DNA of 53,146 nucleotides. Source: an uncultured Clostridia bacterium. GTDB lineage: Bacteria; Acidobacteriota; Aminicenantia; UBA2199. The DNA lies in assembly GCA_964573895.1 (NCBI GenBank), contig CAZNLS010000004.1, forward strand, positions 1 through 53,146, given 5' to 3'. The position numbers and the translations under genes are program-made. Shown here one piece after another: positions 16,228 to 52,764 of this stretch (position 1 is the first letter of the stretch; each line of letters opens with the position of its first letter). A model generated the notes under the pieces. The model did no database searches. It was not told where the DNA came from and worked only from the letters and a program-made list of their open reading frames with translations.

Positions 16228-17580
16228 TTAATTCATCTTTTTTACATATGAATTTACCCAGAAAAAGGCCAGAATGCCAGATGAGAGATTGGCAAATGCT
16301 GCAGCATAAAATATACCTTTAAGGCCAAAAATTCCCGATAGAACGAAAGCTGTCGGAATATAGAGGATAAACATTCTTAAAATAGACAGTGAAGCAGATT
16401 GCAGGGGACGATTCAGTGCATTAAAAGAAGAACCGCTTACCATAAGAATCCCAAGAAAAGAGTATGAAACCGAAACAGTAATCAGGTAAAGGATAATATC
16501 ATTAATTACAATCGGATTTGAGCTGAATATTCCGGCAACAAAACGTCCGGACAGGATAAAAAACAGAAAAAGAAATATTCCCCAGAAGAAAGAAAAATTC
16601 TGGCTTAACCGCACAGCCTTCCTAATCCTGTCTATTTTACCAGCTCCAAAATTCTGTCCCACAAAAGGGATAATTACAGAGCTTAGAGCCATTATCACAG
16701 TCAGAGAAAAAGATTCCACTCTGGTTGCAACACCAAGAGCAGCAACCGCTTCAACTCCGAAACCGGAAACAAATCTGGTAATTATCCCCATTGAAACCGG
16801 AATAATCAGGTTTGTTCCGGCAGCAGGAAGGCCAATATACAAAATCTTCTTCCAGGAGTCATACCATTCCTGAAAAACCGGAGGTTTGAAAATGATCATC
16901 TTCTCCCGTTTATAGAGAATAAAAAATGAAATTGAAAGCGATATAGCCCGGGCAAATACCGTTGCAGCAGCAGCACCCTCAAGCCCCCAGGCAGGAAATG
17001 GACCGATCCCGAAAATTAACAGAGGATCCAAAACAGTATTCACAAGTGCCGAAATAAACATTATAAGACTGGGTGTTTTTGTATCACCTGTTGCCCTGAT
17101 GGCACTATTTCCCACCATCGGTATTATCACAAACATCATTCCCGGGTACCAGATTGTCATGTATTTTTTTATCAATTCCAATATTTCTTCGGATGCACCC
17201 ATTAATCTGAAAAGCGGGGTTATTGTAAGAAGTCCGGTAACAACAAAAACAAATACAATGAGAATTGCTAATGTCAATGCATCGGTGGTGTACCTTTGAA
17301 CCTTATGAGAATTACCTTCTCCAATCGCCCTGGAAATAACGGAAGATGCACCAACTCCAAGACCGAGAGCAATACTCCCGATCACAAAAACTACAGGAAA
17401 AGTAAAACTCATTGCCGCAAGCTCTTTTATTCCAAGCTGCCCGACAAAAAATGTGTCAATAAGATTGAATGCAATAATACTGACAATTCCGATTATCATG
17501 GGGCCGGTCAGGGAAACAAGACTTTTTCCTATTGGTCCCTCTATTAGCTTCGCGCTGTTTTTTTTCACACTGTGTTCCAA
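16228..17580 (-). CDS. MATE family efflux transporter
   Basis: 450 aa with 12 predicted TM segments and a typical MATE N-terminus (..GPIGKSL..L..P..). TTG start, so the exact start is uncertain. Confidence 0.82.
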   Translation of the reverse strand: MEHSVKKNSAKLIEGPIGKSLVSLTGPMIIGIVSIIAFNLIDTFFVGQLGIKELAAMSFTFPVVFVIGSIALGLGVGASSVISRAIGEGNSHKVQRYTTDALTLAILIVFVFVVTGLLTITPLFRLMGASEEILELIKKYMTIWYPGMMFVIIPMVGNSAIRATGDTKTPSLIMFISALVNTVLDPLLIFGIGPFPAWGLEGAAAATVFARAISLSISFFILYKREKMIIFKPPVFQEWYDSWKKILYIGLPAAGTNLIIPVSMGIITRFVSGFGVEAVAALGVATRVESFSLTVIMALSSVIIPFVGQNFGAGKIDRIRKAVRLSQNFSFFWGIFLFLFFILSGRFVAGIFSSNPIVINDIILYLITVSVSYSFLGILMVSGSSFNALNRPLQSASLSILRMFILYIPTAFVLSGIFGLKGIFYAAAFANLSSGILAFFWVNSYVKKMN

Positions 17581-19499: not shown

Positions 19500-20546
19500 A
19501 TGACTATCGAATTAAAAAAAATTGCGGAAATGGTGGGGGCTGAAACCGTTGATTTGCCGAAAAAAATTAAAATTAGCGGAATTGCACCGATAGAGAGTGC
19601 TGCAACAGACCAGATAACCTTTCTTGCAAACAAAAAATATCTTCGCTATGCCGGCATGACGAATGCTGCAGCTATTATCACTTCATCCGAGTTTGACCTG
19701 CCGGAAGGTAAAATAGCACTGATTGTTAAAAATCCCTATGAAGCATTTATTAAGATAGTTAAATTCTTTAACAAACGGAAAAATTCGGATATCGCATCCG
19801 GGATTTCCGATCTTGCCTTTTTACACGATTCTTCCACGCTGGCGGAAGATGTATCAGTTGCTCCCTTTGCATACATAGGAGAAAATGTCAGGATAGGAAA
19901 GGGAACGAGAATCGGCGCAAATGTTGTAGTGATGAAAGGAAGCACAATCGGGAATAATTGCCTTATATATCCGAATGTAACCCTGATGGATCAGACAATC
20001 ATCGGAAACAGAGTAATACTCAATGCAGGATCAGTCCTTGGAGGAGACGGATTCGGATTTATTCCCGGTCAAAAAGGTCTGGAAAAGATCCCCCAGACGG
20101 GCAATGTAGTTATCGAAGATGACGTGGAGATCGGTGCGAACACCTGCGTGGACAGGGCTGTAACCGGATCCACGACTATCAAATACGGAACAAAAATAGA
20201 TAACCTTGTCCAGATCGGCCATAATGTGAGGATAGGTTCGGATTCTATTATAGTATCGATGGCGGGAATTTCAGGTTCAACAGTCATAGGTGACAGAGTA
20301 ACTATTGGCGGCCAGGCCGGATTCGGGCAGCATATCAGAGTAGGAGACGGTGCAACAGTAGCAGGTCAGGCCGGAGTAACAAAAAATGTTCCGGAAAATA
20401 CAATTGTTTCCGGTTACCCGGCAAAAGAGCATATGAAGGCAATCAGGGAGGAGATTGCAGTAAGAAATCTACCTTCCCTGAAAAAAAAGATAATGGAGCA
20501 GGAAAAGAGACTGGCAAAGCTGGAAGAATCAATTAATATCAAATAA
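19500..20546 (+). CDS. lpxD: UDP-3-O-acylglucosamine N-acyltransferase
   Basis: 348 aa. N-terminal LpxD domain (..ITFLANKKY..), a long hexapeptide-repeat beta-helix, and a C-terminal helical tail. Confidence 0.9.
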   Translation: MTIELKKIAEMVGAETVDLPKKIKISGIAPIESAATDQITFLANKKYLRYAGMTNAAAIITSSEFDLPEGKIALIVKNPYEAFIKIVKFFNKRKNSDIASGISDLAFLHDSSTLAEDVSVAPFAYIGENVRIGKGTRIGANVVVMKGSTIGNNCLIYPNVTLMDQTIIGNRVILNAGSVLGGDGFGFIPGQKGLEKIPQTGNVVIEDDVEIGANTCVDRAVTGSTTIKYGTKIDNLVQIGHNVRIGSDSIIVSMAGISGSTVIGDRVTIGGQAGFGQHIRVGDGATVAGQAGVTKNVPENTIVSGYPAKEHMKAIREEIAVRNLPSLKKKIMEQEKRLAKLEESINIK

Positions 20547-20834: not shown

Positions 20835-21848
20835 GTGAAAAAAAAAGTACTTCTAATACATACCGGGGGGACGATAGGAATGAGCCGGGATATAGAGAGC
20901 GGTGTCTTAAAACCTGAGATATTCCATGAAAGCCTCCACAACTTCATCCCCCAGCTAAACGAAATCGCGGATATCGATGTTGAGATCCCTTTTTTAATCG
21001 ACAGCTCGGAAATGAAGCCTGAATATTTAAAAAAGATAGTTTCGATTATCAGAAAATGTTCCGACTGTTATTCAGGGATAGTGATATCTCACGGAACCGA
21101 CACAATGGCATACACAGCATCTGCTCTCTCTTATATGCTAATGAACCTTCCCTTTCCCGTAATTCTGACCGGTGCCCAAAAACCCCTGAGTGAAATTAGG
21201 AGCGATGCCAGATCGAATCTCATAAATGCTATTGAGCTGGCTACCAAAGGAATTAACGAGGTATCTGTAATGTTTAACAATAAACTCATGCGTGGAAACA
21301 GGACGACAAAAGATCATATAAACCATTTTGATGCATTTTCCTCTCCAAACTATCCACTTTTAGCAAAGACAGGCATTAATATAGAGATTTACAAAAAAAA
21401 CATTCTAAAACAGGATGGCCTCTTTCATATATTCGAAAATCTCGATAATTCAATTGCAGTGCTCAAAATCTTTCCCGGTATAAATCCGGATTATTTCAAT
21501 CCCGGACCTCAATTCAGGGCTGTTGTTATCATCGCATATGGTGCCGGAACTTTCCCATTATCCAATTCAAAATTTCTGAACAAAGCTCTCTCATGGATTG
21601 ACTCCCAAAAAACCGTCATTCTAATGAGCGAAGTAAAAAGGGGGGTGCTTGCTCCCCTGCTTTATGAATCAGGGAAAAAACTTCTCGATGCCGGTGCACT
21701 TAATTCCGGTGATATGACATTTGAAGCAGCAGTTACTAAATTAATGTTTTTACTGGGTCAGTATAATGATCCATCTAAAATAAAGCTAAATTTCAAAAAA
21801 CCCATTGCAGGAGAGATATCATCCGGATCCTTATCATACAGGGATTGA
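20835..21848 (+). CDS. ansA: L-asparaginase, type I (cytoplasmic) family
   Basis: HTGGTIGM and HGTDTM catalytic motifs. I prefer the GTG at 20835, directly after the stop of the small ORF, over the ORF-track start at 20766, which lies in an A-rich overlap. Confidence 0.8.
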   Translation: MKKKVLLIHTGGTIGMSRDIESGVLKPEIFHESLHNFIPQLNEIADIDVEIPFLIDSSEMKPEYLKKIVSIIRKCSDCYSGIVISHGTDTMAYTASALSYMLMNLPFPVILTGAQKPLSEIRSDARSNLINAIELATKGINEVSVMFNNKLMRGNRTTKDHINHFDAFSSPNYPLLAKTGINIEIYKKNILKQDGLFHIFENLDNSIAVLKIFPGINPDYFNPGPQFRAVVIIAYGAGTFPLSNSKFLNKALSWIDSQKTVILMSEVKRGVLAPLLYESGKKLLDAGALNSGDMTFEAAVTKLMFLLGQYNDPSKIKLNFKKPIAGEISSGSLSYRD

Positions 21849-23177
21849 ATACTTTTTTTGAAGATATTTTTCCTTGATGAGATTTACCAGTTCACCATTT
21901 TCACTATGACCTGTCTTCTGGGCAATAATTCTGCCTCTTAACGGCCTGCCTAAAAGATAAAAATCCCCCATTATATCCAGAATTTTATGTCTTGCAAGTT
22001 CATCTTTAAATCTCAGTTCAGTATTAAGAATCTTGCCATTGTCTATTAAAATAAAATTGTTCAGCCTTCCGCCTTCCGCAAGCCCCATTTTTGCCAGTTT
22101 TCTGAACTCCTCTACAAAACCGTATGTTCTTGAAGGAGCAATCTCATTTTCAAAATCTTCAGGACTTTCGAGACAGAATTCATAGCTGGATCTGCCAAGC
22201 GGTTCCGGATATACCGTTGTATACCTGACGCAAAACCTGTCAAAAGGTTCTATCTTTATGTATTTTTCGTTTTCTCCCTCTTTTCCCACTATTATACTTT
22301 CGTCAATTACAATTTCAGGGATAAATTCTTCCTGTTCTTTTATTCCGCTCTCTCTTATGAATTCACAGAATCTGCTTGCTGATCCATCATCAATCGGAAC
22401 CTCTTTATTTATTTTTACCAGTAAATTGGAAATTCCAAATGCATTCAGGGTTGCAAGAAAATGCTCAATTGTCCTGGCAATTATTCCATCCTTCTGAATA
22501 GAGGTTGCATAGCTGGTCGAATCAAGAAATTCAATCCTTGCCGGGACATATCCCTTCTCGGAAATATTTTCAAACCTGATCCCTTTTCCCGGAGGCAATG
22601 GGCTGATAGACATGCCGGTCCTCTCACCTGAATGAAGACCGAGGCCGTAAAAAACATTGCTTTTTTCGACGGTTTTTTGTTGTCTGACAAATTTGTTTGA
22701 CTCCAGGTCATACTCTTCAACACCGGTATTCTCCTTAACAATCTCTCTCTGCATCGCTTCAATGTCTGCTTTCTCCCTGACCATATCCCGCAGCATTTTA
22801 TTCTCATCAAGAATTTTTTTATACTCGTTGCCTTTGCTTACCGCAAGAAGCACTTTATCAAGACTCAGAGGCTTTTCGAGAAAATCAAAAGCACCATCTT
22901 TCACTGCCTGAACAGCTGAAGAAATATTGCCGTGGCCCGAGATCATTATAACAACCTGTGTCGGATCAATCTTCAAAATTTTGTCAAGAGTTTCAAGACC
23001 ATCTATTCCGGGAAGCCAAATATCGAGAAATATAAGATCCGGTTTTAAATTTACAAACTTTTCGTACCCCTCCTCTCCTGAAGAAGCAAAAAAAACAGTG
23101 AATCCTTCATCTTCCAGAACGGATGCAATGGAGACCTGGATATTCTTTTCATCATCGATAACAAGAACTTTTTTCAT
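21834..23177 (-). CDS. lpxC: response-regulator receiver domain fused to UDP-3-O-acyl-N-acetylglucosamine deacetylase
   Basis: 447 aa. Residues 1 to about 120 form an NtrC-type REC domain (DDE at 8-10, D52 in FLDIWLPG, MISGHG, FLEKP). Residues from about 165 to 447 form LpxC (QKTV..GLGLHSG.., TIEHF, HKILDIMGD, KTGHSEN). The start overlaps the upstream AAA+ stop (ATGA). Confidence 0.88.
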   Translation of the reverse strand: MKKVLVIDDEKNIQVSIASVLEDEGFTVFFASSGEEGYEKFVNLKPDLIFLDIWLPGIDGLETLDKILKIDPTQVVIMISGHGNISSAVQAVKDGAFDFLEKPLSLDKVLLAVSKGNEYKKILDENKMLRDMVREKADIEAMQREIVKENTGVEEYDLESNKFVRQQKTVEKSNVFYGLGLHSGERTGMSISPLPPGKGIRFENISEKGYVPARIEFLDSTSYATSIQKDGIIARTIEHFLATLNAFGISNLLVKINKEVPIDDGSASRFCEFIRESGIKEQEEFIPEIVIDESIIVGKEGENEKYIKIEPFDRFCVRYTTVYPEPLGRSSYEFCLESPEDFENEIAPSRTYGFVEEFRKLAKMGLAEGGRLNNFILIDNGKILNTELRFKDELARHKILDIMGDFYLLGRPLRGRIIAQKTGHSENGELVNLIKEKYLQKKYSIPV

Positions 23178-26122
23178 CCGTTTTCACCGTCCATTCCTGA
23201 CTCCTCTTCAATCACACTTTTAAAATTTACAGTACTGAATTTTACTGATGAACCTGAAAATTTAGCATTAATTTCACCCTTCAGATAAAATTCCACGGTT
23301 TGCATTGTTTCCCATTCAGGGAGGAGAGAAAGATGTGCAATCTTCTCAAGAATAGACTTCTTTATAGTACGTCCGATGTTTCTCGCACCGTACTGTGCAG
23401 AGTAACCTTTATCTATAAGTTTCTCTATTACATTTTTTGGTATATTCAAAGATTTACCATCTGCCGACAGTTTTTTTACTGTGTCAGACAATTGCAAATC
23501 AATTATTTTTTCGATATCTTTCCGTTCCAATGTATCAAATACTATTATATCATCAATCCTGTTTATGAATTCCGGTGAAAAAAACTTTTTTACTGATTTA
23601 TCAATTTCATAATCGCTAACCCGTTCTCCCTTTTCACTGGAATTATATCCCATCAATTGCCTGGAATAGAGTGAAGTTCCAATATTTGAGGTCATAATAA
23701 TTGTTGCATGAGAGAAATCCACCACATTTCCCCGTGCATCTGTAAGTCTCCCCGCATCAAAAACCTGAAGAAAAATGTTAAGGAGTTGATAATCGGCTTT
23801 TTCAATTTCATCGAGAAGGATTACCGAATAGGGATTTTTCCTGACTTTATCCGTAAGCTGAGTGGCATCATTGTATCCCACATATCCGGGCGCGGCTCCG
23901 ACAAATCTTGAATATGTAAATTTTTCCATATATTCAGACATATCAATTCTTATAACATTTTCCCTTGATCCCAGTAAATATTCAGAAAGCACAAGGGCTG
24001 TTTCGGATTTTCCGACACCGGTTGGCCCAACAAACAGGAAAACACCATCCGGGCGGCTGCTGTTTACTTCAAACCCGAGCTTTGATGATATAATCCCGGA
24101 AACCAGCCTGCTGACCGCTTTTTTCTGACCTATGATCTCTCTGTTTATATTCTTCTCCAGATTCGATAATTTTTCCTTCATTGAGACCGAAGCTTTTGCT
24201 TCGGGAAGATTCATCAGATCTGAAATAACTTCGGCGATATCATCTTCAGTCACTTTAAAAACCGGCTCACTTTTTCTAATCCCCTTATACTTAACCTTCG
24301 AAATCACACGGTCAAATATCATAATTGCAGAATCAGGGAGCTTTTTCCCGAAAAAATTTTTTGTACCGTTTTCAATAATAAGCTCAATTATAGAATCCGG
24401 AACAATAATATCATCGTTAAGTATGCTCTTCTTTGCATGTTCTTTTAATATTATTTCCGTCTCTTCTTTACTCATTTCCTTCACGTTTACACGTTGAAAA
24501 TGAGATAAAAAAGATTGATCTTTTTCAAGGGAATTTTTGTATTCATCATAAGTGGATGTAGCAATCACCCTGATTGAACCATCACGGAGGAACTGCTTAA
24601 GTATATTTACAAGATCAAGTGAAGTACCTCTGGCAGTTCCCGGAGATATCATCAAATGGATATCTTCGAGAACAAGGAGGCTGTTTTCACTTTTAAACTC
24701 TTCAAGTACTTTTACTACTTTTTCCTCAAACTGGCCTCTGTATTTTGTTCCGATCAGAAGTGATACAAAATTTATCTCCTTTAAGCTTATACCCTTCAGT
24801 TCCGCAGGGACTTCATCCCTGTTAATTCTGTCTGCGAGGATTTTTAAAAAGGTACTTTTCCCAACACCGCTTTCTCCTACAAGCATGAGATTATTCCTGG
24901 AAGAAGAAATTAGAATTTCAATAGCCTGCCTTAGCTCACGATCTCTCTGATATAAGAAGTTCTGTTCATGCGTAACCTTTTCAGAAATATCAAAAAAAAG
25001 CTCTCTGGCCGCCCCTTGTTTTGAAACTTCTCTGCCTTTTTTAAGAATTGATCTCAATTTTTTTATCTTCTCAGAAAGTTCCCTGTCATAATTAATACTG
25101 TAAGCTTTTTCATAATTTTCGATAGCAGTTTTATATCTTCCCTCTTTTTCATAAATTCTTGCACGAATTTTAAATCCCTGATAATAACGTGGATATTTCC
25201 GGATGAATTTGTCAACCTGAAGCTTAAGATCCTCATGCTTCCCTGTATTTTCAAGAATTTCAAGTCTGATTAGAAAGAACATCGGATAAGTGTTTATAGG
25301 GGACGGAAGGTTTTTTATGTAATTATTGCTCTCGGCAAAATTTTCTTCCGAAACTGATATTACTGCCATCTCAGCATTTTTTAATACTTTGGGATATGTA
25401 TCACCTTTTAAACCAATGAGTCTCAATGCCTGTTCAAAAGCCAGATTTCTCAGCAGATAAACATATAGTCTGTGAAGGAGGATCCTGTCAGCTATAATTA
25501 GACTTTTTTCTTTTGCCAAATCACTATATCTCAGCCCCTTTTTCTCAATGCTTCCAAGGATAAGAACACTACCCCCGCTGCACTGCACAAACGGAGTAAG
25601 GGGAATAGACAGTTCGTCAAAACTGAACATAACACACTCTCCCGGTGTATCCTTTTCACCCGAGATAATCAGAGTCCCTGAGATTTTTTGTTCGAAGACT
25701 TTGAAAAAATTATCAAACCAGAAAGTAAAATCTGCAAAGAATGATTCTTTTTCCTTTTTAAGTCTGTAATTCCTGACATTTTTAAAATAATCTTCGAGAT
25801 TCTCGATAATAAATATAAATGTCTGTTTTTCAGTCCTTGAAAATTTGAAAACCTGAGTATTAAAATTCTTCAGGTATGCTTTAATATAGCTGCAGCAATC
25901 TTCAAATTCATTAGACAACGGATCTGAAGAATCCTGCAGGTCAAGATCATTATTAAGCCCGAGACTCTCACTTTTCAAAAGAATTGATATTATCACAAAA
26001 AGTGAAATCGTTGCCTGTTCAGAAATTTCTCTTGTGAGTTTACTCCGGTCTAATGTGATATTACTCCCAAAAAAATTGAGGAATGCAGACACTGTTTTTT
26101 CTACCGGTTTATACTCTTCCAT
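23174..26122 (-). CDS. ClpA/ClpB-like double AAA+ ATPase with a novel N-terminal region
   Basis: D1 Walker A is GESGVGKST. D2 is GPTGVGKSE with Walker B ILLDEIEKA, and the C-terminal ..YGARNIGR.. D2-small domain is present. The first roughly 390 aa match nothing I recognise except two 13-residue IYEKxG repeats. I prefer the ATG at 26122 because the ORF-track start at 26203 is the -35 box of the promoter. Confidence 0.8.
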   Translation of the reverse strand: MEEYKPVEKTVSAFLNFFGSNITLDRSKLTREISEQATISLFVIISILLKSESLGLNNDLDLQDSSDPLSNEFEDCCSYIKAYLKNFNTQVFKFSRTEKQTFIFIIENLEDYFKNVRNYRLKKEKESFFADFTFWFDNFFKVFEQKISGTLIISGEKDTPGECVMFSFDELSIPLTPFVQCSGGSVLILGSIEKKGLRYSDLAKEKSLIIADRILLHRLYVYLLRNLAFEQALRLIGLKGDTYPKVLKNAEMAVISVSEENFAESNNYIKNLPSPINTYPMFFLIRLEILENTGKHEDLKLQVDKFIRKYPRYYQGFKIRARIYEKEGRYKTAIENYEKAYSINYDRELSEKIKKLRSILKKGREVSKQGAARELFFDISEKVTHEQNFLYQRDRELRQAIEILISSSRNNLMLVGESGVGKSTFLKILADRINRDEVPAELKGISLKEINFVSLLIGTKYRGQFEEKVVKVLEEFKSENSLLVLEDIHLMISPGTARGTSLDLVNILKQFLRDGSIRVIATSTYDEYKNSLEKDQSFLSHFQRVNVKEMSKEETEIILKEHAKKSILNDDIIVPDSIIELIIENGTKNFFGKKLPDSAIMIFDRVISKVKYKGIRKSEPVFKVTEDDIAEVISDLMNLPEAKASVSMKEKLSNLEKNINREIIGQKKAVSRLVSGIISSKLGFEVNSSRPDGVFLFVGPTGVGKSETALVLSEYLLGSRENVIRIDMSEYMEKFTYSRFVGAAPGYVGYNDATQLTDKVRKNPYSVILLDEIEKADYQLLNIFLQVFDAGRLTDARGNVVDFSHATIIMTSNIGTSLYSRQLMGYNSSEKGERVSDYEIDKSVKKFFSPEFINRIDDIIVFDTLERKDIEKIIDLQLSDTVKKLSADGKSLNIPKNVIEKLIDKGYSAQYGARNIGRTIKKSILEKIAHLSLLPEWETMQTVEFYLKGEINAKFSGSSVKFSTVNFKSVIEEESGMDGENG

Positions 26123-26174
26123 TTGATCAGAACATTCTCCTTTGATCCTTTTCGGGACCGGAATTCTGCAAGAA

Positions 26175-26203
26175 ATTATAATCAGATAAACATAGTTTGT
26201 CAA
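26175..26203 (-). promoter_or_regulatory. perfect-consensus sigma70 promoter for the AAA+ / REC-lpxC operon
   Basis: On the minus strand: TTGACA (26203-26198), exactly 17 nt, TATAAT (26180-26175). AAAGGAG RBS upstream of the ATG at 26122. Confidence 0.7.
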
Positions 26204-26260: not shown

Positions 26261-28618
26261 ATGGATAAAGTTACAGAGCTCATTAGAGACTATCCAATCC
26301 TGAAGCTCGTTCTGATAGTTGTTATAGTCGGAGTGATCTTAAAACTGGTATATGAAATACTGAAAATTGTAAAAGTTCTAAACATTCAGGATAAATCTTT
26401 TTTAGATGCGTTTTATTCCATTCTTTTTAAAAAATCTTATATAGCATCTCAGGCAAAAAAAGCCATAAAACAGGGGAACTTTTTAAAAGCAGGGAAAATT
26501 TACGAAGAGATCGGCGATTTTAAAAAAGCAGTTAAGGCATATGAGGACGGGAAGCAATTCAATGATATCGGCGAACTCTATGAAAAACTAAACAAAGAAA
26601 CACTTGCAATTGAAATTTATAAAAAAAGCGGTAATCTTGACGGTCTGGTAAAACTTTATATAAAAAGAAAAAACATTGATGAAGCGGGAAAACTCCTGGA
26701 GAACAGCAGCCGGCACCAGGAAGCAGCTGAACTTTATTATAATCATGGAAAATTTGAAAAGGCAGCACAAATTTACGAAAGGAAGGGATTTTACAAAAAA
26801 GCCGCTGTAATTTACGAGAAATCCGGAGATAAAAAAAAGGCTGCAATGAATTATGAAAAATGGTACAACTCAACTGCAGATACATCGATTGGATACCAGA
26901 GTAATTCACAACTTGACAATGATCTCGACAAGGCCGCTCAAATGTGGACAGAGACCGGTGAGATTGAACGTGCATACGAACTCCTTCTAAAGAATCATAA
27001 GTTCGAAAAAGCTGCCGAACTTGCACTAAAACTCAACAAATTAAAAGAAGCGGCTTCTCTTTTTGAAAAAGCACAGCAGCCAATCAGAGCCGCATCTCTT
27101 TATGAAAATATCGGTGAGGATAAAACTGCATGCCAGTTGAGAGGAGAAGATGCATTTGCACGCGGTAATACATCTGAAGCGGCAGAGTGGTTTCTCAAAG
27201 GCGAAGATTATATAAGAGCAGCAGAATTATTTGAATGGAATAAATTGTTTGATAAGGCTGCACACTGTTATTTTATGAACCAGAACTATCTTTCCGCAGC
27301 TGATAATTACATGAAGCATGGAAATGAAGAAGAGGCAGCAAAAATGTTTGAATTGGGAAAAGAGTGGAAAATGGCTGCCGATATCTCTTTTAAATTCAAA
27401 AAATACCAAAAATCCGGAGAACTCTACGAAAAGTCAGGCGATTTTTACAACTCCGGGGTCTCATTTCTCAGGGTCGATAATGAAAAGAGGGCACTGGCTA
27501 ATTTTCAAAAAGTTCCCATGAATTCGGAAAATTATGAAAAAGCAATAACACAAATGGCAAATATCTTCCTCGCAAACAGGAAGCCCCAGCTTGTAGTTGA
27601 AAAGATCGGAAAAATGCTCCAGGATCAGACCATCAATAAGGAGAATCTCGAATGGTTCTATATATTGGGACAGGCAGAAGAGAATCTCGGAAATTTCAAA
27701 AAAGCATTCGAAATATACCAGGGAATCTTAACAGAAGATTATTCATTCAGGGATGTTCACCAGAAGATTCAGGAAGTCGAAAAACTTATTAAAAAATATA
27801 AAGAAATGGACCTTGTAGCAGATAATTCCACAGGAAGATACAAGATCATAAGGAAAATTGGCGAAGGCGGAATGGGGGTAGTTTTCAAGGCAGAGGATAC
27901 TGTTTTAAAGAGGATTGTTGCCCTGAAAATATTAAATAAAAGTCTGATCAAAGACAAAAGAAACCTTGAAAGATTCTTCACGGAAGCACGTTCGACAGCT
28001 TCACTTTCACATGCAAATATTGTTACGGTCTATGATGTTGGACAGCTTGATGACGATTATTTTATTTCCATGGAGTTTATCGAAGGTGAAAACTTCATGA
28101 CAATTCTAAGGAGAAAAAACAAGTTCACGATTCCCCAGATTCTTTTTGTAACCATAAAAGTATTGAAAGCACTTGATTATTCACACCGGAAGGGAATAAT
28201 CCACAGGGATATCAAACCTCATAATATTATGATAACACGTCAAAAAGAGATTAAAATAATGGATTTCGGTCTTGCAGTAATCAGAGGAGAACAAAAAAAA
28301 GGAGACTCGGGAGTAGTAACCGGAACACCGTATTATATGTCACCCGAACAGATCCAGGGAGTCGGAGCAGATCACAGAACAGATATATATTCAACCGGAG
28401 TAACTATTTTTCACCTTATAACAGGCAGAGTTCCTTTCAAAGGTGAAAATGTCTTTTACCAACATCTCTTTGAACCTGTGCCTCCAATCAAAGATATTGA
28501 ACCGGCTGCTCCCCAGAAACTTGTTGATATAGTTGAAAAATGTATGGAAAAAAAGCGTGAAGACCGATATCAGAGTGCCCAGGACGTATTGAACGCAATA
28601 AAAACAATTAAAATATAG
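26261..28618 (+). CDS. membrane-anchored helical-repeat protein with C-terminal Hanks-type Ser/Thr kinase domain
   Basis: 785 aa. N-terminal TM helix (LKLVLIVVIVGVILKLV), repeat region at residues about 77-410, and a kinase domain from about residue 525 (GEGGMGVVFKA, VALKIL, HRDIKPHN, DFGLA, GTPYYMSPE). Confidence 0.88.
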   Translation: MDKVTELIRDYPILKLVLIVVIVGVILKLVYEILKIVKVLNIQDKSFLDAFYSILFKKSYIASQAKKAIKQGNFLKAGKIYEEIGDFKKAVKAYEDGKQFNDIGELYEKLNKETLAIEIYKKSGNLDGLVKLYIKRKNIDEAGKLLENSSRHQEAAELYYNHGKFEKAAQIYERKGFYKKAAVIYEKSGDKKKAAMNYEKWYNSTADTSIGYQSNSQLDNDLDKAAQMWTETGEIERAYELLLKNHKFEKAAELALKLNKLKEAASLFEKAQQPIRAASLYENIGEDKTACQLRGEDAFARGNTSEAAEWFLKGEDYIRAAELFEWNKLFDKAAHCYFMNQNYLSAADNYMKHGNEEEAAKMFELGKEWKMAADISFKFKKYQKSGELYEKSGDFYNSGVSFLRVDNEKRALANFQKVPMNSENYEKAITQMANIFLANRKPQLVVEKIGKMLQDQTINKENLEWFYILGQAEENLGNFKKAFEIYQGILTEDYSFRDVHQKIQEVEKLIKKYKEMDLVADNSTGRYKIIRKIGEGGMGVVFKAEDTVLKRIVALKILNKSLIKDKRNLERFFTEARSTASLSHANIVTVYDVGQLDDDYFISMEFIEGENFMTILRRKNKFTIPQILFVTIKVLKALDYSHRKGIIHRDIKPHNIMITRQKEIKIMDFGLAVIRGEQKKGDSGVVTGTPYYMSPEQIQGVGADHRTDIYSTGVTIFHLITGRVPFKGENVFYQHLFEPVPPIKDIEPAAPQKLVDIVEKCMEKKREDRYQSAQDVLNAIKTIKI
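26489..27490 (+). repeat. array of about 24 tandem degenerate 13-residue (39-nt) protein repeats inside the kinase gene
   Basis: Consecutive 13-mers read directly from the translation: AGKIYEEIGDFKK, AVKAYEDGKQFND, ..., AAELYYNHGKFEK, AAQIYERKGFYKK, AAVIYEKSGDKKK, .... The consensus is roughly A-A-x-h-Y-E-K-x-G-x-x-x-K. One 18-aa linker and one 17-aa unit interrupt the register. Confidence 0.8.
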
Positions 28619-30921: not shown

Positions 30922-31125
30922 GTGAATTTAAATATTATAATACTGATTATTTGTTCGGTTATCACTATTGAAGGAGCGATCCTCCTCATCTCACCTTCAA
31001 AAATAAAAAAAATGATCAGGGAAATTCTTGAAATCCCGGATGGAACATTGAGACTCTTTGCCGTGATAATGACAATCACAGGATTGATAATAATCTATTT
31101 TTTAAGGGACAGTATATGCAGATAA
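30922..31125 (+). CDS. small two-helix membrane protein, DUF2065-like
   Basis: 67 aa with two hydrophobic helices flanking a charged loop. GTG start; overlaps the hutH start by 10 nt. Confidence 0.5.
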   Translation: MNLNIIILIICSVITIEGAILLISPSKIKKMIREILEIPDGTLRLFAVIMTITGLIIIYFLRDSICR

Positions 31126-32627
31126 AAATCGATGGAAACAGTTTAACACTTGATGCATTTCAATCCGTTGCAGATGGAATTGCAAAGACAGTACTGTCGG
31201 ATAGTGCAAAGAAAAAAATTAATTTTGCCAGAAAAACACTGGAAGAGCTGATAAATACCGGGCAGGCATTCTATGGAGTAAATACCGGGTTCGGAGCACT
31301 TGCTAACAGAAAAATAGAAAAAAGAGATCTGAAAAAACTTCAAAAAAACCTGATAAAAAGCCACACTGCCGGAGTGGGAAACATGCTGCCCGACAATATA
31401 GTCCGGGGAACGATGCTTCTAAGGGCAAACGTACTTGCAAAAGGTTTTTCCGGAGTAAGGATCCAGGTTGTTGAATTCCTTCTTGAAATGCTCAACAGGG
31501 ATATTCTGCCGTTGATCCCATCGAAGGGATCAGTTGGAGCTTCCGGTGATCTTGCTCCGCTGGCACATCTTGCTATCACTCTATTGGGTGAAGGAGAGGT
31601 GAAATATAAAGGGAATGTCTGTCCTGCAAAAGAGGCTCTAAAAAAAAGCGGAATGAAACCTCTTGTTCTTCTTGAGAAAGAGGGTCTTGCTCTTATCAAC
31701 GGAACACAGGTTTTAACTGCGATTGCCGCACTGAATTTGCTTGAAAGTGAACACCTTGTTAAGATAGCAGATATTGCCGGTGCACTTACTTTTGAAGCAC
31801 AGCTTGGGAATCCTTCTCCATTCTTCGAGGATATCCAGCGAGTAAGACCATTCCCGGGACAGAAAACAACAGCATCAAATATAAGGAAACTGATAAAAAA
31901 TTCAAAGCTTTGGGATTCTCATAAAGGAAAAGAAAAGGTCCAGGATGCATATTCCATAAGATGTATTCCTCAGGTTCACGGAGCAGTAAGGGATACTCTT
32001 TCATTTGTGAGAAATACAGTTGAAACCGAAATAAATTCTGCAACCGAGAATCCTATGATCTTTCCTGAAAAAAAAGTGATTTTATCGGGAGGAAATTTTC
32101 ACGGAGCTCCCGTTGCTTTTGCTATGGATTATCTTTCGATTGCAATGACAGAGTTAGGAAATATATCCGAAAGGAGAATCGACAGAGTCATAAATCCCGC
32201 TACAAATATGAATCTTCCTCCCTTCCTTATACGCGATAACGGCCTTAATTCCGGATTTATGATAGCTCATGTGACTGCAACTTCTCTCACTTCTGAAAAC
32301 AGGACACTTGCCCATCCTGCATCTGTTGATAATATTCCAACTTCAGCAAACCAGGAAGATCATGTAAGCATGGGAAATTTTGCTTCAAGAAAAGCAGCCG
32401 AAATTATTGCAAATGTAAAATATATTCTGGCAATTGAGATCCTCTGCTCTCTCCAGGCACTGGATTTTTATGAGCATACACCCGGAGTTGCGCTTGAAAA
32501 ATTCAAAAAAAGGGTCAGGGAAAAAGTACCTTTTCTGTCTGAGGATGACAGGATGGATACACTTTTTGAAGGAGTTGTCGAAATTATAAATGACAGGAAA
32601 TTTATAAAAACTCTGAATTTGTTATAA
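31116..32627 (+). CDS. hutH: histidine ammonia-lyase
   Basis: 503 aa. MIO-forming motif GSVGASGDLAPLAHL, YGVNTGFG, and the S-H pair in LIKSHTAGVG that is characteristic of HAL. Confidence 0.85.
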   Translation: MQIKIDGNSLTLDAFQSVADGIAKTVLSDSAKKKINFARKTLEELINTGQAFYGVNTGFGALANRKIEKRDLKKLQKNLIKSHTAGVGNMLPDNIVRGTMLLRANVLAKGFSGVRIQVVEFLLEMLNRDILPLIPSKGSVGASGDLAPLAHLAITLLGEGEVKYKGNVCPAKEALKKSGMKPLVLLEKEGLALINGTQVLTAIAALNLLESEHLVKIADIAGALTFEAQLGNPSPFFEDIQRVRPFPGQKTTASNIRKLIKNSKLWDSHKGKEKVQDAYSIRCIPQVHGAVRDTLSFVRNTVETEINSATENPMIFPEKKVILSGGNFHGAPVAFAMDYLSIAMTELGNISERRIDRVINPATNMNLPPFLIRDNGLNSGFMIAHVTATSLTSENRTLAHPASVDNIPTSANQEDHVSMGNFASRKAAEIIANVKYILAIEILCSLQALDFYEHTPGVALEKFKKRVREKVPFLSEDDRMDTLFEGVVEIINDRKFIKTLNLL

Positions 32628-33635: not shown

Positions 33636-35165
33636 ATGGCCATAGAATTAAACGGTTCAGGTTTAACTATCGAAAAGTTAGTCAGAATTGCACGATTTAA
33701 TGAAAAAGTGAATCTTTCAAATGATGCAATAATGCGGATAAAAGCATGCCGTACCATGCTTGAGAAAAAAATTGAAGCTAATGAAATAATGTATGGAGTA
33801 AACACCGGGATCGGTGAGTTTTCAGAGGTGGTTCTGAATGACGACCAGGTAAAAGAATTCCAGAAATATCTGATTTATAACCATGCTGCTGGAATCGGAG
33901 ATCCGGCTCCAATCGAATATGTACGCGGAGCGATGGCCGGAAGAATCAACGTTCACGCTCATGGTAATTCAGGCTGCCGGCTTGAAATCACGCAAACACT
34001 CGTTGAAATGCTTAACAAAGGAGTCACACCTTTTGTCTGTCAGAAAGGTTCAGTAGGGGCTTCCGGAGACCTGGCTCCTATGTCACAGATTGCACTTCTT
34101 CTAATGGGTGAAGGGCAGGCATATTATTTGGGAGAACTTCTTGACGGCAAAGTTGCTATGGAGAGAGCAGGTATCAAAATCCCGGGACTCCAGGCAAGAG
34201 ACGGCCTTGCTGCAATAAACGGATCCAATGTCCTGACGGCAATGTCCGCAATATTTCTATATGATTCATTTAGATGGTTAAAACAGGCTGAGATTGCTGC
34301 TGCAATGTCGCTGGAAGCATTGAAGGCTAACATGAAACCTTATACCCCCCTCCTGCATGAAGTCAGGGGTTTTAAAGGAGCAATAGAGAGCGCAAAATCA
34401 ATCGGAAAACTGGTTAAAAACGGTGATCTGGCTGAAGGAAAAATCAAATGCAAAGTCCAGGATGCCTATTCGATGCGATCAACACCGCAGGTGATCGGAG
34501 CAGCTAGAGATGCTCTTACTTATGCAAGATCCCAGGTTGAAATCGAATTAAACGGCGTCGGTGATAACCCGATCTTCTTTCCGGATAAAAACATTCAGAT
34601 ATCAGGCGCCAATTTTCAGGGAACTCCGGTTTCACTTCCAATGGATATGGCCGGTGCTGCAATTACCATGGTCAGTGTTATGTCGGAAAGAAGAATGAAC
34701 CGGCTCAACCATCCGGCACTCAATGTCGGCCTTCCTGCCTTTCTGACAAAAGGAGCGGGAATGTTCTCAGGATTGATGCTGAGTCAGTATACAGCCGACA
34801 TGCAGATAGTTGAACAGAGAATTTTATGCATGCCCGCCTCCATCCAATCTATCCCGGCAGCAGCTGATCAGGAAGATTTTGTGTCAATGGGAATGAATAC
34901 TGCTATTAAAAATTTTCAGATACTGGACAATGCATACGGAATCCTTGGGATCGAGTTTATGGCAGCAGCACAAGCCCTTGATTTCCGTGATTACAACTTC
35001 GGGAAAGGAGTATCAACTGCAAAAAAAGTAGTCAGGAAATATGTAGACTTTCTTGAAATAGACAGGCCGCTATATCCTGATCACACAAAAATGAAGGAAC
35101 TGGTTAAATCCTGTGAAATCCTTGAAGAAGTTGAAAAAGAGATAGGCCCTCTGGAAGCACTTTAG
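33636..35165 (+). CDS. aromatic amino acid ammonia-lyase family protein (HAL/PAL/TAL family, divergent paralog)
   Basis: 509 aa. MIO motif GSVGASGDLAPMSQIA and YGVNTGIG. The selectivity position reads N-H (LIYNHAAGIG) rather than S-H. Confidence 0.85.
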   Translation: MAIELNGSGLTIEKLVRIARFNEKVNLSNDAIMRIKACRTMLEKKIEANEIMYGVNTGIGEFSEVVLNDDQVKEFQKYLIYNHAAGIGDPAPIEYVRGAMAGRINVHAHGNSGCRLEITQTLVEMLNKGVTPFVCQKGSVGASGDLAPMSQIALLLMGEGQAYYLGELLDGKVAMERAGIKIPGLQARDGLAAINGSNVLTAMSAIFLYDSFRWLKQAEIAAAMSLEALKANMKPYTPLLHEVRGFKGAIESAKSIGKLVKNGDLAEGKIKCKVQDAYSMRSTPQVIGAARDALTYARSQVEIELNGVGDNPIFFPDKNIQISGANFQGTPVSLPMDMAGAAITMVSVMSERRMNRLNHPALNVGLPAFLTKGAGMFSGLMLSQYTADMQIVEQRILCMPASIQSIPAAADQEDFVSMGMNTAIKNFQILDNAYGILGIEFMAAAQALDFRDYNFGKGVSTAKKVVRKYVDFLEIDRPLYPDHTKMKELVKSCEILEEVEKEIGPLEAL

Positions 35166-37327: not shown

Positions 37328-38401
37328 CTATTTTTTCAATAATTTTTCAAATAACGGTGTCGTTTGTTCTATAAATTTATTTCCCGAATGTCTAATCATG
37401 AATACCGGAATTTTTTCTTTCAGAGCAAATTTTAAACCTTTCTTTGGTCCCAAAACGTCAATAGCAGTTGCATAAGCATCAGCCATCATACATGAACGGT
37501 GAATTACCGTCACTGACACAAGATCGTGTATAACAGGATAACCGGTATCCGGATCAATTGTATGTGAGTATCTCTTTCCATTTTTTTCAAAGTAATTCAT
37601 GTAATCGCCGGATGTAGCCATTGAACAGTCAGAGATATGTATAACCCTGGACAACCCGGGTCTTACCTTTGGTGATTTTATTCCGACTGACCACGTGGCT
37701 CCTGCTCCATTCACTCCCCGAACCCTTATTTCTCCACCGATCTCCACCAGATAGTTAAGAAAACCTTTTGAATCAAGGAACTCGGCAACCCTGTCTACTC
37801 CGAATCCCTTCGCAATCGCTGACAAGTCACAATACAGCCCCTTTAATTTTTTTTTTAAAGCAGGAGGATTGTATCTTACATCGAGGAATTTATAACCGAT
37901 TTTTTTTTTCAGCTTCTCAATTACGGTTTTTTCAGGTATCTCTCTTTTTGAAAAATCTTTGCCGAATCCCCAAATATTCACAAGAGGACCAACTGTAATA
38001 TCAAATTTACCCATCGTTTTACGGCTTACATCAAGGGAAGCACTTATTACAAACACAGTATCATTTGAAATGGTGAACCAGTCATTTTTCCCATAGGAAT
38101 TAAAACGGGAAATTTCAGAATCTTTTCTGTAGGTTGACATTTTATTATTAACATCTTCCAGAATAGAATTAATTCCCTGTTCAAGCTCATTTAGTTTTTT
38201 TTTGACATTACCAAGAAGAAGAAAATTATTTCTGACAATCTTCACACTGAATGTTGTCCCCATGGTACTTCCGGTTATTGAAACAGTGTTAGAGAGCTTA
38301 GTATTACTCTGTTTGCATGAAATACTAAAAATTATTGAGAAAAAGATTATTACTACTGAAAAAAAACGAATTTTAGAGATTATGAATACGGATTTTTTCA
38401 T
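37328..38401 (-). CDS. apbE: FAD:protein FMN transferase (flavin transferase), lipoprotein
   Basis: 357 aa with lipobox SISC, MGTTFSV motif and C-terminal ..SGDY.. region. 4-nt overlap with the nqrF stop. Confidence 0.88.
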
Positions 38402-39633
38402 CCACCGAAATCATCAAGCATAATATTTTCAGGTTCAACACCGAGATTATCAAGCATATCTATAACAGCTTTATTCATCATTGGCGGCCCGCACATGTAA
38501 TATTCACAATCCTCCGGATTAGGGTGATCTTTGAGATAATTTTCGTATAGTACCTGATGGATAAAACCGGTATAACCTTTCCAATTATCTTCCGGGAGAG
38601 GTTCCGAAAGAGCTATATTCAATTCAAAGTTTTTGTTATTTTTCTGCAGATTTTTAAAATCATCTATATAAAACATTTCACGAAGACTTCTCGCTCCATA
38701 CCAGAATGTGACTTTACGGTCAGTGTGTATTCTTTTCAACTGGTCGAAAATATGTGATCTCATCGGTGCCATTCCTGCTCCACCGCCAATGAATACCATT
38801 TCAGCATCAGTCTCCTTTGCAAAAAATTCACCGTAGGGACCGGAAATAGTAACTTTATCTCCGGGTTTGAGGTTAAAAATATATGAAGACATTTGTCCCG
38901 GAGGCACATTAGGCATAGATGGCGGAGGAGATGCAATTCTTACATTGAGCATGATAATCCCTTTCTCTTCAGGGTAGTTAGCCATCGAGTATGCTCTTGA
39001 GATCTCGGCTGTTACTTTAGACTCATATCTCCACAGATCAAATTTATCCCAATCGTGCTTATATTCATCCTCTATTAAAAAATCCCTGTAATTAAGTTTG
39101 TGAGAAGGGGCATCTATCTGGATATATCCCCCTGCCCTAAAGTCAACATGCTCTCCTTTGGGAAGTTCTAATACCAGTTCCTTGATAAAAGTTGCAACAT
39201 TGTGATTTGACCTTACAGTACATTCCCATTTCTTTACATCAAAAATTTCCGGAGGAATTTCAATTTTCAGATTCTGTTTAACGGAAACCTGACAGGACAA
39301 TCTAACCCCTTCCCTTGCTTCACGCCTGTTCACCATAGACGTTTCAGTTGGAAGAATATCTCCGCCGCCTTCAAAAATCTTGCATTTACACTGCCCGCAG
39401 GTTCCCTGACCTCCACATGCGGAAGGGATAAAAATTTTGTTATCTGCAAGTGTGTTCAGCAGCTTATCACCTGCGGGAACACTCAGACTTTTCGACTCAT
39501 CATCATTTATCAGGATATTTACATTACCGCTGGCTACGAGCTTAGATTTTGCAAGCAGTATAAACACAACAAGTGCGAGAACAATGAATGTAAACATAAA
39601 AACGCCAAGTAGTACAATATTTAATCCGCTCAT
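38398..39633 (-). CDS. nqrF: Na+-translocating NADH:quinone reductase subunit F
   Basis: 411 aa. N-terminal TM helix, 2Fe-2S ferredoxin motif [12 protein letters not shown], and an FAD/NADH-binding domain ([15 protein letters not shown]). Confidence 0.93.
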
Positions 39634-39645
39634 TTCTATCCTTCC

Positions 39646-40257
39646 TTATAATTGAATCCCGGAAAAAAGCATGAAAGCCATTGCCATGAGTCCCGCAGTA
39701 ATAAATGTTATACCGAGACCTCTTAAGCCGGGGGGAATATTGCTGTATTTCATCTTTTCACGAACACCCGCCAGGGCTATAATTGCAAGCGCCCATCCTA
39801 TACCGGAGCCCATACCGTAAACGACACTCTCTGTAAATGTATATTCTCTCTGGACCATAAGAAGCGAACCGCCCAGAATTGCACAGTTAACAGTTATGAG
39901 AGGAAGAAAGATCCCGAGAGCGTTATAGAGACTGGGAACATATTTATCAAGTACCATTTCCAGTATCTGAACCATGGCAGCTATAACACCGATATAGGTG
40001 ATTAACCCGAGAAATGTGAGATCAACACCCGGAAGCCCTGCCCATGAAAGAGCCCCTTCCTTTAACACATTGTTATATATAAGATTATTTACCGGGACTG
40101 TTATGGTCTGAACAACGACAACTGCAATCCCCAACCCGAATGAAGTCTCGACTTTTTTTGATACCGCAAGGAATGTACACATCCCCAGGAAAAATGCCAG
40201 GGCCATATTCTCAATAAAAATTGATTTGATGAAAAGACTTAAATAGTGTTCAATCAT
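39646..40257 (-). CDS. nqrE: Na+-translocating NADH:quinone reductase subunit E
   Basis: 203-aa polytopic membrane protein in the NqrE position of the operon. Confidence 0.9.
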
Positions 40258-40260
40258 TTT

Positions 40261-40881
40261 TTATTCCTCTTCAATTTGCTCTTTTTTAATGGATCTTACA
40301 ATCCAGATAATAATTCCAATTAGAAAAAATGCACTGGCCGGCAAAACCAGAAGTCCGTTCGGAACATACCATCCGCCATCAGTTTTGAGTGGAAGGATTG
40401 AATATCCGAGAAGTTTTCCCGAACCGAAAAGCTCACGAACAAATCCTACCGAAACGAGCACAAAAGTATATCCCAGCCCGTTGCCGATCCCGTCAAGAAA
40501 ACTCATCCAAGGTGGATTTTTCAGAGCATATGCTTCAGCTCTTCCCATAATAATGCAGTTGGTAATGATCAGGCCTACATAAACCGAAAGCTGCTTCGAT
40601 ACATCAAAAAAGAAGGCCCTTATAAACTGGTCCGCAATAATAACGAGAGATGCAATAATTGTCATCTCAACAATTATCCTTATGCTGCTCGGGATGTAGT
40701 TCCTGATGGCACTGACAGCAAGATTCGAAAAAGCAAGGACAAATATTACTGCAAGTGACATAACCAATGATGTTTCAAGTTTTGAAGTTACTGCCAGAGC
40801 CGAACATATTCCCAGAACTCCAAGCAGAATCGGGTTGTTGCTAAATATCGGATCAAAGAGAGTTTTTCTCATTGTGCTCAT
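40261..40881 (-). CDS. nqrD: Na+-translocating NADH:quinone reductase subunit D
   Basis: 206-aa polytopic membrane protein with an NqrD/RnfE-like N-terminus (..[18 protein letters not shown]..). Confidence 0.9.
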
Positions 40882-40882
40882 A

Positions 40883-52757: not shown

Positions 52758-52764
52758 TGATAAA

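Follow-up and report, generated by a model that had tools for sequence, protein, structure and literature searches.

The 53,146-nt stretch analysed here (the window; contig CAZNLS010000004.1, from an Aminicenantes bacterium) contains a gene in which a response regulator receiver domain is joined to the lipid A pathway enzyme LpxC. We confirmed that this gene, called REC-LpxC below (REC for receiver), encodes a complete receiver, a linker and a complete LpxC in one polypeptide. Judged by its conserved residues, the LpxC part is most likely catalytically competent and the lipid A pathway enzyme of this bacterium. We consider it somewhat probable that REC-LpxC is a lipid A LpxC under direct phospho-control by an NtrY-type histidine kinase, exerted through dimerisation of the receiver, through turnover of the enzyme or through both, and that it originated in a fusion of the regulator NtrX to LpxC.

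The N-terminal part matches the Pfam Response_reg family at residues 4-113 with 95.5 bits (cutoff 30.2), and the C-terminal part matches Pfam LpxC at residues 167-434 with 250.7 bits, over model positions 1-266 of 268 (E-values in Table 1). The score against the NCBIfam lpxC equivalog TIGR00325 is 213.7 bits, for a cutoff of 187.25. The receiver signature is formed by D8-D9-E10, D52, S80 and K102-P103, and translation of the gene verified these coordinates, so that the hallmarks read by an earlier note on this DNA (a DDE pocket at 8-10, the phospho-acceptor D52, a serine and a lysine) are all in place. The LpxC residues were mapped on a HMMER alignment to LpxC from Aquifex aeolicus (PDB 5u86/2jt2, E 4e-46), along which the Aquifex numbering was counted. 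In this alignment, Aquifex E73/H74 correspond to E238/H239, T179 to T351, H226/K227/D230/D234 to H397/K398/D401/D405 and H253 to H424. The His-His-Asp zinc ligands are thus present (H239, H397 and D401), and they are also kept across the representatives of the clusters of fused proteins described below. The catalytic Glu/His pair (E238 and H424) and the supporting T351, K398 and D405 are present as well. The earlier note had recognised an E-H pair, H..D zinc ligands and a second catalytic His, and had proposed an alignment to solved LpxC structures; this alignment retains every catalytic and zinc-binding residue, and the loss expected of a pseudo-enzyme was not seen.

Among solved structures, the C-terminal part is closest to LpxC of Aquifex, Pseudomonas and E. 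coli, and the N-terminal part to the receivers of NtrC4/NtrC1 (Aquifex), NtrX (Brucella) and DctD. Past the LpxC domain, the protein has 9 more residues. No FabZ domain was found in it, the LpxC-FabZ model NF009667 matching the LpxC part only (197.5 bits against a cutoff of 465), and the Pfam search detected neither AAA+ nor HTH_8 (a helix-turn-helix, HTH, family) in it. No second REC or LpxC was found within the window by six-frame and profile searches. The Rfam and tRNA scan of the window gave one tRNA-Arg only, and no regulatory RNA was found by it near REC-LpxC.

Conservation was followed in an alignment of 26 orthologues (61-82% identity), in which the identities are means against the window sequence (Table 1). 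D8, D9, E10, D52, S80, K102 and all the LpxC catalytic and zinc residues are invariant in this set. The receiver core is constrained at least as strongly as the enzyme (mean identity of 74.6% versus 69.8%), which argues against a decaying or purely structural appendage. We also obtained an AlphaFold2 (AF2) monomer model with a mean pLDDT (predicted local distance difference test) of 76.8 and a pTM (predicted template modelling score) of 0.64. In this model, the receiver consists of five alternating strand/helix units, (beta-alpha)5, with a pLDDT mostly between 82 and 92, alpha5 runs on as a single helix over residues 106-134, and the LpxC fold begins at residue 164. Confidence is low after the helix, with a pLDDT below 50 for residues 132-151. 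The earlier note had described a charged linker of about 45 residues; a linker does exist, but it is not uniform, as helix 105-134 continues alpha5 and is followed by a variable segment at 135-165. Inside this variable segment, a motif I.RE.TG..EF...D at residues 146-160 (about 22698-22742) is conserved in the Aminicenantes orthologues only.

The helix residues Y119, V122, N126, L129 and L133 follow the 3-4 spacing of heptads and occupy conserved columns, and E125, N126 and L129 are invariant in the helix extension. A buried Asn within a heptad pattern is typical of parallel dimeric coiled coils, and receivers of the NtrC1/DctD type dimerise through such a linker helix. By analogy, REC-LpxC would form a receiver/helix dimer. 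At the other end of the protein, no conserved degron-like C-terminal tail was found among the 26 orthologues, most of which lack residues 439-447. Since the LpxC tail is short and non-conserved, there is no C-terminal degron of the FtsH type.

The earlier note called the receiver NtrC-like, which can be narrowed to the NtrX type. The best NCBIfam model for the N-terminus is NtrX (NF051870), which matches residues 1-140 with 125.8 bits against 86.7 bits for the next family; weaker receiver matches include PorX and RssB. We also built an NtrX-receiver profile from the receiver and linker of 51 NtrX proteins directly following NtrY. The window protein matches this profile over its full length with 167 bits and the long fused forms described below (REC-AAA-LpxC) reach 156-171 bits, compared with 146 and 141 bits for two unfused NtrC-type regulators of Aminicenantes and a median of 63 bits for unrelated regulators. 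As judged from these sequence matches, the receiver is NtrX-derived and not generically NtrC-like. As a whole protein, REC-LpxC scores far below the level of NtrX, taken as at least 600 bits together with an AAA+ domain and a Fis-type HTH. With an NtrX-type receiver but without AAA+ and HTH, it is a derivative of NtrX and not NtrX itself. NCBIfam was also tried as a means to tell NtrX from NtrC among full-length Aminicenantes regulators and was set aside, the scores being too close (428, 427 and 414 bits).

REC-LpxC is the standard form of the enzyme in Aminicenantes. At least 120 protein clusters (90% identity) contain both Pfam domains and share 61-100% identity with the window protein; their names, if given, are those of Candidatus Aminicenantes or Acidobacteriota metagenome-assembled genomes (MAGs). 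Full-length orthologues with 62-82% identity are encoded at 25 loci of the species-representative genome collection. Several Aminicenantes-type loci (L001, L005, L011 and L020-L023 in our numbering of loci) come from records titled 'uncultured Clostridia bacterium' (binchicken) or, in one case, 'Candidatus Omnitrophota', and these titles are probably mislabels. The domain-architecture search that the earlier note had proposed thus returned a large family spread over several phyla and not an isolated oddity.

In the wider search, about 15 billion proteins were covered by one representative per 50%-identity cluster. Beyond the Aminicenantes cluster, the nearest relatives among these representatives measure 650-736 aa or 420-505 aa. 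Their Pfam architectures are REC + Sigma54_activat + AAA_lid_14 + LpxC, REC + HTH_8 + LpxC and further REC-LpxC forms. The longer relatives bear source names of 'Deltaproteobacteria' MAGs, Nitrospinota and Candidatus Entotheonellia, and some are labelled NtrX by the Joint Genome Institute (JGI). Walker A is mostly retained in the AAA+ domain of the 15 long forms aligned, the GAFTGA loop is absent from it and the Walker B Glu is usually missing. Many of the 15 also have a Fis-type HTH segment ahead of LpxC, and HTH_8 was detected by Pfam in one of them (P0136). Such a degenerate AAA+ domain and Fis-type HTH ahead of LpxC indicate that the long forms are whole NtrX-like regulators carrying LpxC. 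Among cluster representatives, all 15 REC-AAA-LpxC proteins and 25 of the 26 REC-LpxC proteins retain the catalytic string E-H-T-[FY]-H-K-D-D-H.

Genome scans for fused and stand-alone LpxC gave at least 600 matched stretches, and the following distribution is that of the 80 loci listed. Fused forms occur in Thermodesulfobacteriota, Desulfomonile, Syntrophobacteraceae and Desulfocapsaceae, in Nitrospinota, Thermodesulfovibrionia (Nitrospirota) and Binatia, including the complete chromosome OZ241351.1, and in the Acidobacteriota groups Thermoanaerobaculia, Holophagae, Terriglobia and Aminicenantes. A cultured isolate, Desulfopila sp. IMCC35006, encodes a REC-LpxC of 449 aa. Of 100 bootstrap replicates of a neighbour-joining tree, 83 set the fused LpxC domains apart from 65 of 70 stand-alone or LpxC-FabZ sequences; the other 5, short 'stand-alone' sequences, fall inside the fused group. 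The Aminicenantes clade was recovered in all 100 replicates.

As the earlier note had stated, there is no histidine kinase in the window: HisKA and HATPase_c were found neither by Pfam in open reading frames (ORFs) of at least 280 aa nor by a kinase-core hidden Markov model run on the six-frame translation. Outside Aminicenantes, clustering of the ORFs revealed a protein of about 750 aa encoded directly upstream of the fused gene and on the same strand in 11 of 28 loci. This protein is an NtrY kinase according to Pfam (NtrY_N, HAMP, PAS, HisKA and HATPase_c). In one Acidobacteria locus (L217), a histidine kinase gene is followed by ntrX, by three small ORFs (one on the same strand and two on the opposite one) and then by REC-LpxC, with the kinase, NtrX and REC-LpxC all on the + strand. 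In unfused genomes, the gene order lpxC-DUF4390-ntrY-ntrX was obtained in 11 of 67 NtrY-centred loci. This operon recurs in Thermodesulfobacteriota, 'Deltaproteobacteria', Thermoanaerobaculia and Rokubacteria (L062, L070, L074, L079, L111, L123, L160, L167, L182, L194, L197 and others), and the uncharacterised DUF4390 is a regular companion of NtrY.

NtrY kinases are also encoded by Aminicenantes, so that a window devoid of kinase does not mean a bacterium devoid of it. In the MAG UBA647, REC-LpxC (L004) and an NtrY-type kinase (L134) are encoded on separate contigs. With the UBA647 kinase as query, at least 120 clusters were obtained (59-100% identity), mostly without name, and their proteins measure about 723 aa. 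The JGI names are NtrY, and the few taxa named by NCBI are Aminicenantes in most cases and Acidobacteriota, Omnitrophota and Chrysiogenales once each. A regulator gene directly downstream of the Aminicenantes NtrY kinase was found in none of the 7 distinct contexts examined, while 51 of 67 NtrY loci in other lineages have one. An NtrY without a following regulator and an orphan NtrX-type receiver on LpxC fit a cognate pair, and this pairing is circumstantial because the kinase is not adjacent. In three Aminicenantes contexts (L280/L281, L282 and L286), NtrY without an adjacent regulator lies about 2-5.5 kb from rnpA-yidD-yidC. Since the window stops at rpmH, next to rnpA-yidD-yidC, a candidate partner kinase could lie just beyond position 53146. 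In another context (L287:7785-11346), BREX defence genes (BrxL and PglZ) adjoin an Aminicenantes NtrY-MatE pair.

The upstream partner of REC-LpxC is a gene for a class-I Clp/Hsp100 double-AAA+ ATPase of 1009 aa. Read directly in the sequence, its TGA stop overlaps the ATG of REC-LpxC (ATGA), which indicates that REC-LpxC is translationally coupled to the ATPase gene. Among the 24 Aminicenantes loci whose upstream gene could be read, 16 have the ATPase gene in the same position and strand, as does L072, and the gaps between the two genes range from -35 to +48 nt across the syntenic loci. Among proteins of solved structure, the ATPase most resembles ClpC, ClpB and ClpA (E about 1e-112 to 1e-102), and it has no space for the long middle domain of ClpB. 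At the position of the ClpP-docking loop of ClpC/ClpA, a conserved [MLVP]-G-[YF] tripeptide is present in all 16 ATPase orthologues. In these 16 proteins, the D2 Walker motifs are canonical and the D1 Walker B is non-canonical ('LED'). The N-terminal region of about 410 aa is lineage-specific: no homologues were found with a 387-aa query, a single TPR_8 (tetratricopeptide repeat, TPR) match stayed below threshold, and the single-sequence AF2 model has a pLDDT of 36.5. A Clp-type ATPase coupled to the gene makes turnover of LpxC a concrete option. It is not the reason for the receiver fusion, because its gene is absent in 8 of the 24 Aminicenantes loci and in all the other fused lineages.

Phospho-control of LpxC is the most economical reading of these data, since both domains look functional, the receiver is conserved and NtrY is encoded directly upstream in relatives. 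In the mechanism that we propose, a histidine kinase of the NtrY type, located in the membrane and encoded at another place of the genome, would phosphorylate D52, and phosphorylation would rearrange the receiver/coiled-coil dimer. The rearranged dimer would then alter the output of LpxC, either by its catalytic activity, by its hand-over to the co-transcribed Clp-type unfoldase or by both, and lipid A flux would follow an envelope signal without a transcription step. We infer here the phosphotransfer, the identity of the partner kinase, the dimerisation and the effect on the enzyme; by analogy with the repression of lpxC by NtrYX, our guess would be that phosphorylation might lower lipid A flux. 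As to its origin, the family probably arose by the fusion of an NtrX regulator to LpxC, in lineages with lpxC, ntrY and ntrX already in one operon. The AAA+ and HTH domains would then have gone in Aminicenantes, and the receiver and its dimerisation helix would have been kept.

Several observations weigh against this mechanism. No kinase gene is adjacent to REC-LpxC in the window or in 24 of the 25 Aminicenantes loci. In UBA647, a sigma54-type regulator gene lies 2 kb from NtrY and its product is NtrX-like (146 bits), so that NtrY may act on a different partner or on more than one. The AF2 monomer displays no confident packing between the domains (pTM 0.64, with a disordered linker), and a structural mechanism is not visible in it. 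Finally, the neighbour-joining tree leaves the sister of the Aminicenantes clade among the fused forms undecided and, because it gives no sister group, the loss of AAA+ is argued from architecture only.

Another explanation could be that regulated proteolysis is the main function, the receiver being a phosphorylation-dependent recognition element for the Clp/Hsp100 ATPase, which would feed LpxC to ClpP. The ATGA overlap, the recurrence of the gene pair, the ClpC/ClpA-like build of the ATPase with its tripeptide in 16 of 16 orthologues, and the short non-conserved LpxC tail, which excludes a degron of the FtsH type, all agree with this explanation. There is also a precedent, as E. coli LpxC is degraded by the AAA+ protease FtsH with the TPR adaptor LapB (PMC12444477), and REC-LpxC would be a single-polypeptide analogue of that pair. 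The destruction of LpxC by FtsH/LapB makes a dedicated, coupled Clp unfoldase plausible as a second or alternative route of control. However, the Clp gene is missing next to REC-LpxC in a third of the Aminicenantes loci and in all the other fused lineages, which leaves the fusion unexplained, and the D1 Walker B is non-canonical. Moreover, the N-terminal region of the ATPase, with its one sub-threshold TPR match, its lack of homologues and its pLDDT of about 36, does not help this explanation, and membership in an operon does not by itself establish a substrate relationship. We therefore judge proteolysis unlikely as the main function, with the remark that it overlaps with phospho-control and differs from it mainly in the role given to the phosphoryl group.

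It seems improbable that the receiver no longer signals and is a leftover of the NtrX fusion that dimerises or stabilises a constitutively active LpxC independently of phosphorylation. The absence of an adjacent kinase in Aminicenantes and the loss of AAA+ and HTH, by which the fusion appears to be undergoing reduction, would fit such a leftover, and pseudo-receivers are known in other families. However, invariant phosphorylation-site positions in 26 orthologues and a receiver slightly more conserved than the enzyme are not expected of a scaffold, and NtrY kinases without a directly downstream regulator coexist in the lineage. We give equally little credit to an accessory paralogue, in which a separate LpxC would make lipid A while the fused copy serves as a phosphate sink, senses pools of UDP-acyl-GlcNAc for the NtrY pathway or deacetylates another substrate. 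It is true that LpxC, in the full-length relatives, occupies the place of a C-terminal domain that could influence a transcription factor by ligand binding or dimerisation, but a sensor in the window protein would have neither a DNA-binding nor an AAA+ output to act on. A housekeeping role in lipid A synthesis is moreover supported indirectly by the score above the lpxC equivalog cutoff, by the invariant substrate and zinc residues of the active site, by lpxD lying 1.3 kb away and by the non-overlap of fused and stand-alone forms. Concerning the latter, the Acidobacteriota classes with fused and with stand-alone LpxC do not overlap and no assembly has both among the 80 loci listed, which we take as weak evidence and not as absence.

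Returning to phospho-control, a broader version of it is possible, although we would sooner doubt than expect it: the fused LpxC family across these phyla would be wired directly to the envelope sensor kinase NtrY by the NtrX/receiver fusion and, in Aminicenantes, the phosphorylation state would also decide on the hand-over of LpxC to a ClpP-linked unfoldase that is co-translated with it and dedicated to it. If this were true, control of LpxC and of lipopolysaccharide would be an ancient core function of NtrYX. It would also be a fourth mode of LpxC control, beside FtsH/LapB proteolysis, MurA activation and transcription.

The positions of REC-LpxC, of its parts and of the two neighbouring genes linked to it are collected in Table 1. 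The lpxD gene is also found near REC-LpxC in L001, L003, L004 and L006, and in the window a MatE gene lies near the lpxD cluster (16228-17580). Divergent from the Clp/REC-LpxC operon, a gene at 26261-28618 (+) encodes a 785-aa protein with TPR and a Ser/Thr kinase domain. This protein is 67-91% identical across the Aminicenantes loci, above the conservation of its neighbours, and its gene directly adjoins REC-LpxC where the Clp gene is absent (L004-L006 and L008). Two paralogous genes for aromatic amino-acid (histidine/phenylalanine) ammonia-lyases follow at 31116-32627 and 33636-35165 (+), 1 kb apart, and a cluster of the Na+-translocating NADH:quinone oxidoreductase (Nqr) type at 37328-44260 (-) comprises NqrA, NqrB/RnfD-like, NqrF-like and ApbE. 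The window ends in an origin-proximal cluster (52166-52899, -) with rpmH (52765-52899), rnpA, yidD (52166-52417), yidC, mnmE and mnmG. There, rnpA appears as two overlapping ORFs, at 52611-52757 (48 aa, N-terminal part) and 52414-52614 (66 aa, C-terminal part), which suggests a frameshift or an assembly error. One Aminicenantes MAG has a gene for a bacterial ROCO protein of 1127 aa (LRR, Roc and COR) immediately upstream of REC-LpxC (L010:6555-9938). The recurrent upstream partners of fused LpxC in Thermoanaerobaculia/Holophagae were considered as well and discarded as unrelated genes (M28 peptidase, GH57, MetH and a ROCO protein).

Table 1. Positions in the window of the REC-LpxC gene, its domains and key codons, and two neighbouring genes. 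Mean identity refers to the alignment of 26 orthologues.
Feature	Position	Strand	Mean identity	Evidence
REC-LpxC gene	21834..23177	-		ATG start; 447 aa + stop; Pfam REC + LpxC; TIGR00325 above cutoff; 25 species-level orthologous loci
Receiver core, residues 1-104	22866..23177	-	74.6%	PF00072 E 2.9e-27; five signature positions invariant; AF2 (beta-alpha)5; NtrX-receiver profile 167 bits
Phospho-acceptor D52 codon	23022-23024	-		
S80 codon	22938-22940	-		
K102-P103 codons	22869-22874	-		
Helix alpha5 extension, putative dimeric coiled coil, residues 105-134	22776..22865	-	46.7%	AF2 continuous helix; heptad columns conserved; NtrX match up to residue 140
Variable linker, residues 135-165	22683..22775	-	23.2%	zero invariant columns; pLDDT <50 at 132-151
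LpxC catalytic domain, residues 166-438	21864..22682	-	69.8%	PF03331 E 2.4e-74; near-gapless Aquifex LpxC alignment; 89/273 columns invariant
E238-H239 codons	22461-22466	-		
H397-K398-D401-D405 span	21963-21989	-		
H424 codon	21906-21908	-		
C-terminal tail (residues 439-447), short and non-conserved, plus stop codon	21834..21863	-	12.9%	most orthologues end earlier
Class-I Clp/Hsp100 double-AAA+ ATPase, 1009 aa, upstream partner	23174..26203	-		Pfam AAA, AAA_2, ClpB_D2-small
lpxD, next lipid A pathway enzyme	19500..20546	+		Pfam LpxD + Hexapep; 1.3 kb away, opposite strand, outside the operon

LpxC is a major control point of outer-membrane biogenesis and an antibiotic target, and the controls known so far are proteolysis (FtsH/LapB/YejM, possibly Lon), MurA activation and transcription. 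A receiver built into LpxC would be direct evidence of two-component signalling acting on the enzyme itself. The fusions also tie the poorly understood NtrY/NtrX to LpxC in phyla distant from the alphaproteobacteria, in which the transcriptional link had been observed, and they should interest the fields of envelope homeostasis and of two-component signalling. Receivers, LpxC and receivers fused to enzymes are already known; LpxC as an output domain, the evidence from NtrY/NtrX-LpxC fusions and operons, and the coupling to Clp are new. Full-text literature searches found no published description of a receiver-LpxC or NtrX-LpxC protein, and the words 'response regulator', 'fusion' and 'fused' do not occur in a 2025 review of lipid A regulation (PMC12444477). 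In a census of HD-GYP proteins, the sole mention of LpxC concerns DVU2933. The fused sequences themselves are public and annotated simply as LpxC, or as NtrX by JGI.

Compared with canonical LpxC, REC-LpxC has the same full-length catalytic domain with all the zinc and catalytic residues, but carries in addition a 165-aa N-terminal receiver and linker; unlike E. coli LpxC, it has no conserved FtsH-targeting C-terminal tail. With the REC-AAA+-(HTH)-LpxC proteins of Thermodesulfobacteriota, Nitrospinota and Desulfomonile MAGs, it shares the fused-LpxC group, the type of receiver and the intact LpxC sites. These relatives keep AAA+ and often a Fis-type HTH, whereas the window protein has neither; one of them, MBW2651627.1, is 'NtrX' according to JGI and 'LpxC' according to NCBI. 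In CheB, PleD/WspR, RpfG, PorX and RssB, a receiver is fused to, or recruits, an effector governed by Asp phosphorylation, which is the same logic as in REC-LpxC. The output of REC-LpxC differs from those of such enzymatic response regulators in being a lipid A metalloamidase, and we found no paper with LpxC as the output of a regulator. The LapB(YciM)-FtsH-YejM system of E. coli is alike in that LpxC is the controlled step and in that an AAA+ machine, possibly with a TPR-like region, is tied to it, here genetically. It differs in that the machine is a soluble Clp/Hsp100 here and not FtsH, and in that the signal would enter through a two-component receiver.

The closest comparison is with NtrY/NtrX (NtrX structures 4d6x and 5m7n). 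REC-LpxC has the NtrX-type receiver and inter-domain helix, its relatives are encoded directly after ntrY, and its LpxC target matches the reported link of the NtrYX regulon with lpxC. Indeed, NtrYX represses lpxC transcription in Rhodobacter sphaeroides and Caulobacter crescentus (PMC12444477), and the loss of NtrYX in R. sphaeroides raises lpxC mRNA 8.8-fold, by a seemingly indirect effect (PMC7240162). REC-LpxC differs from NtrX in that its output is the enzyme itself and in that no ntrY is adjacent in Aminicenantes; because it is devoid of AAA+ and HTH, it cannot serve as a transcription factor. Desulfovibrio vulgaris, too, has a two-component pathway devoted to LpxC (DVU2931-2934). There, lpxC is the one target mapped for the regulator DVU2934, which binds upstream of this gene only, and in Syntrophobacter fumaroxidans lpxC adjoins an operon orthologous to that of DVU2934 (PMC3333781). 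This pathway resembles the lpxC-DUF4390-ntrY-ntrX operons, but its control is transcriptional, and we liken the two by function and gene order and not by orthology of DVU2934 and NtrX. The fusions and operons described here suggest that the association of NtrYX with LpxC extends to other phyla, and that control has there moved from the gene to the protein.

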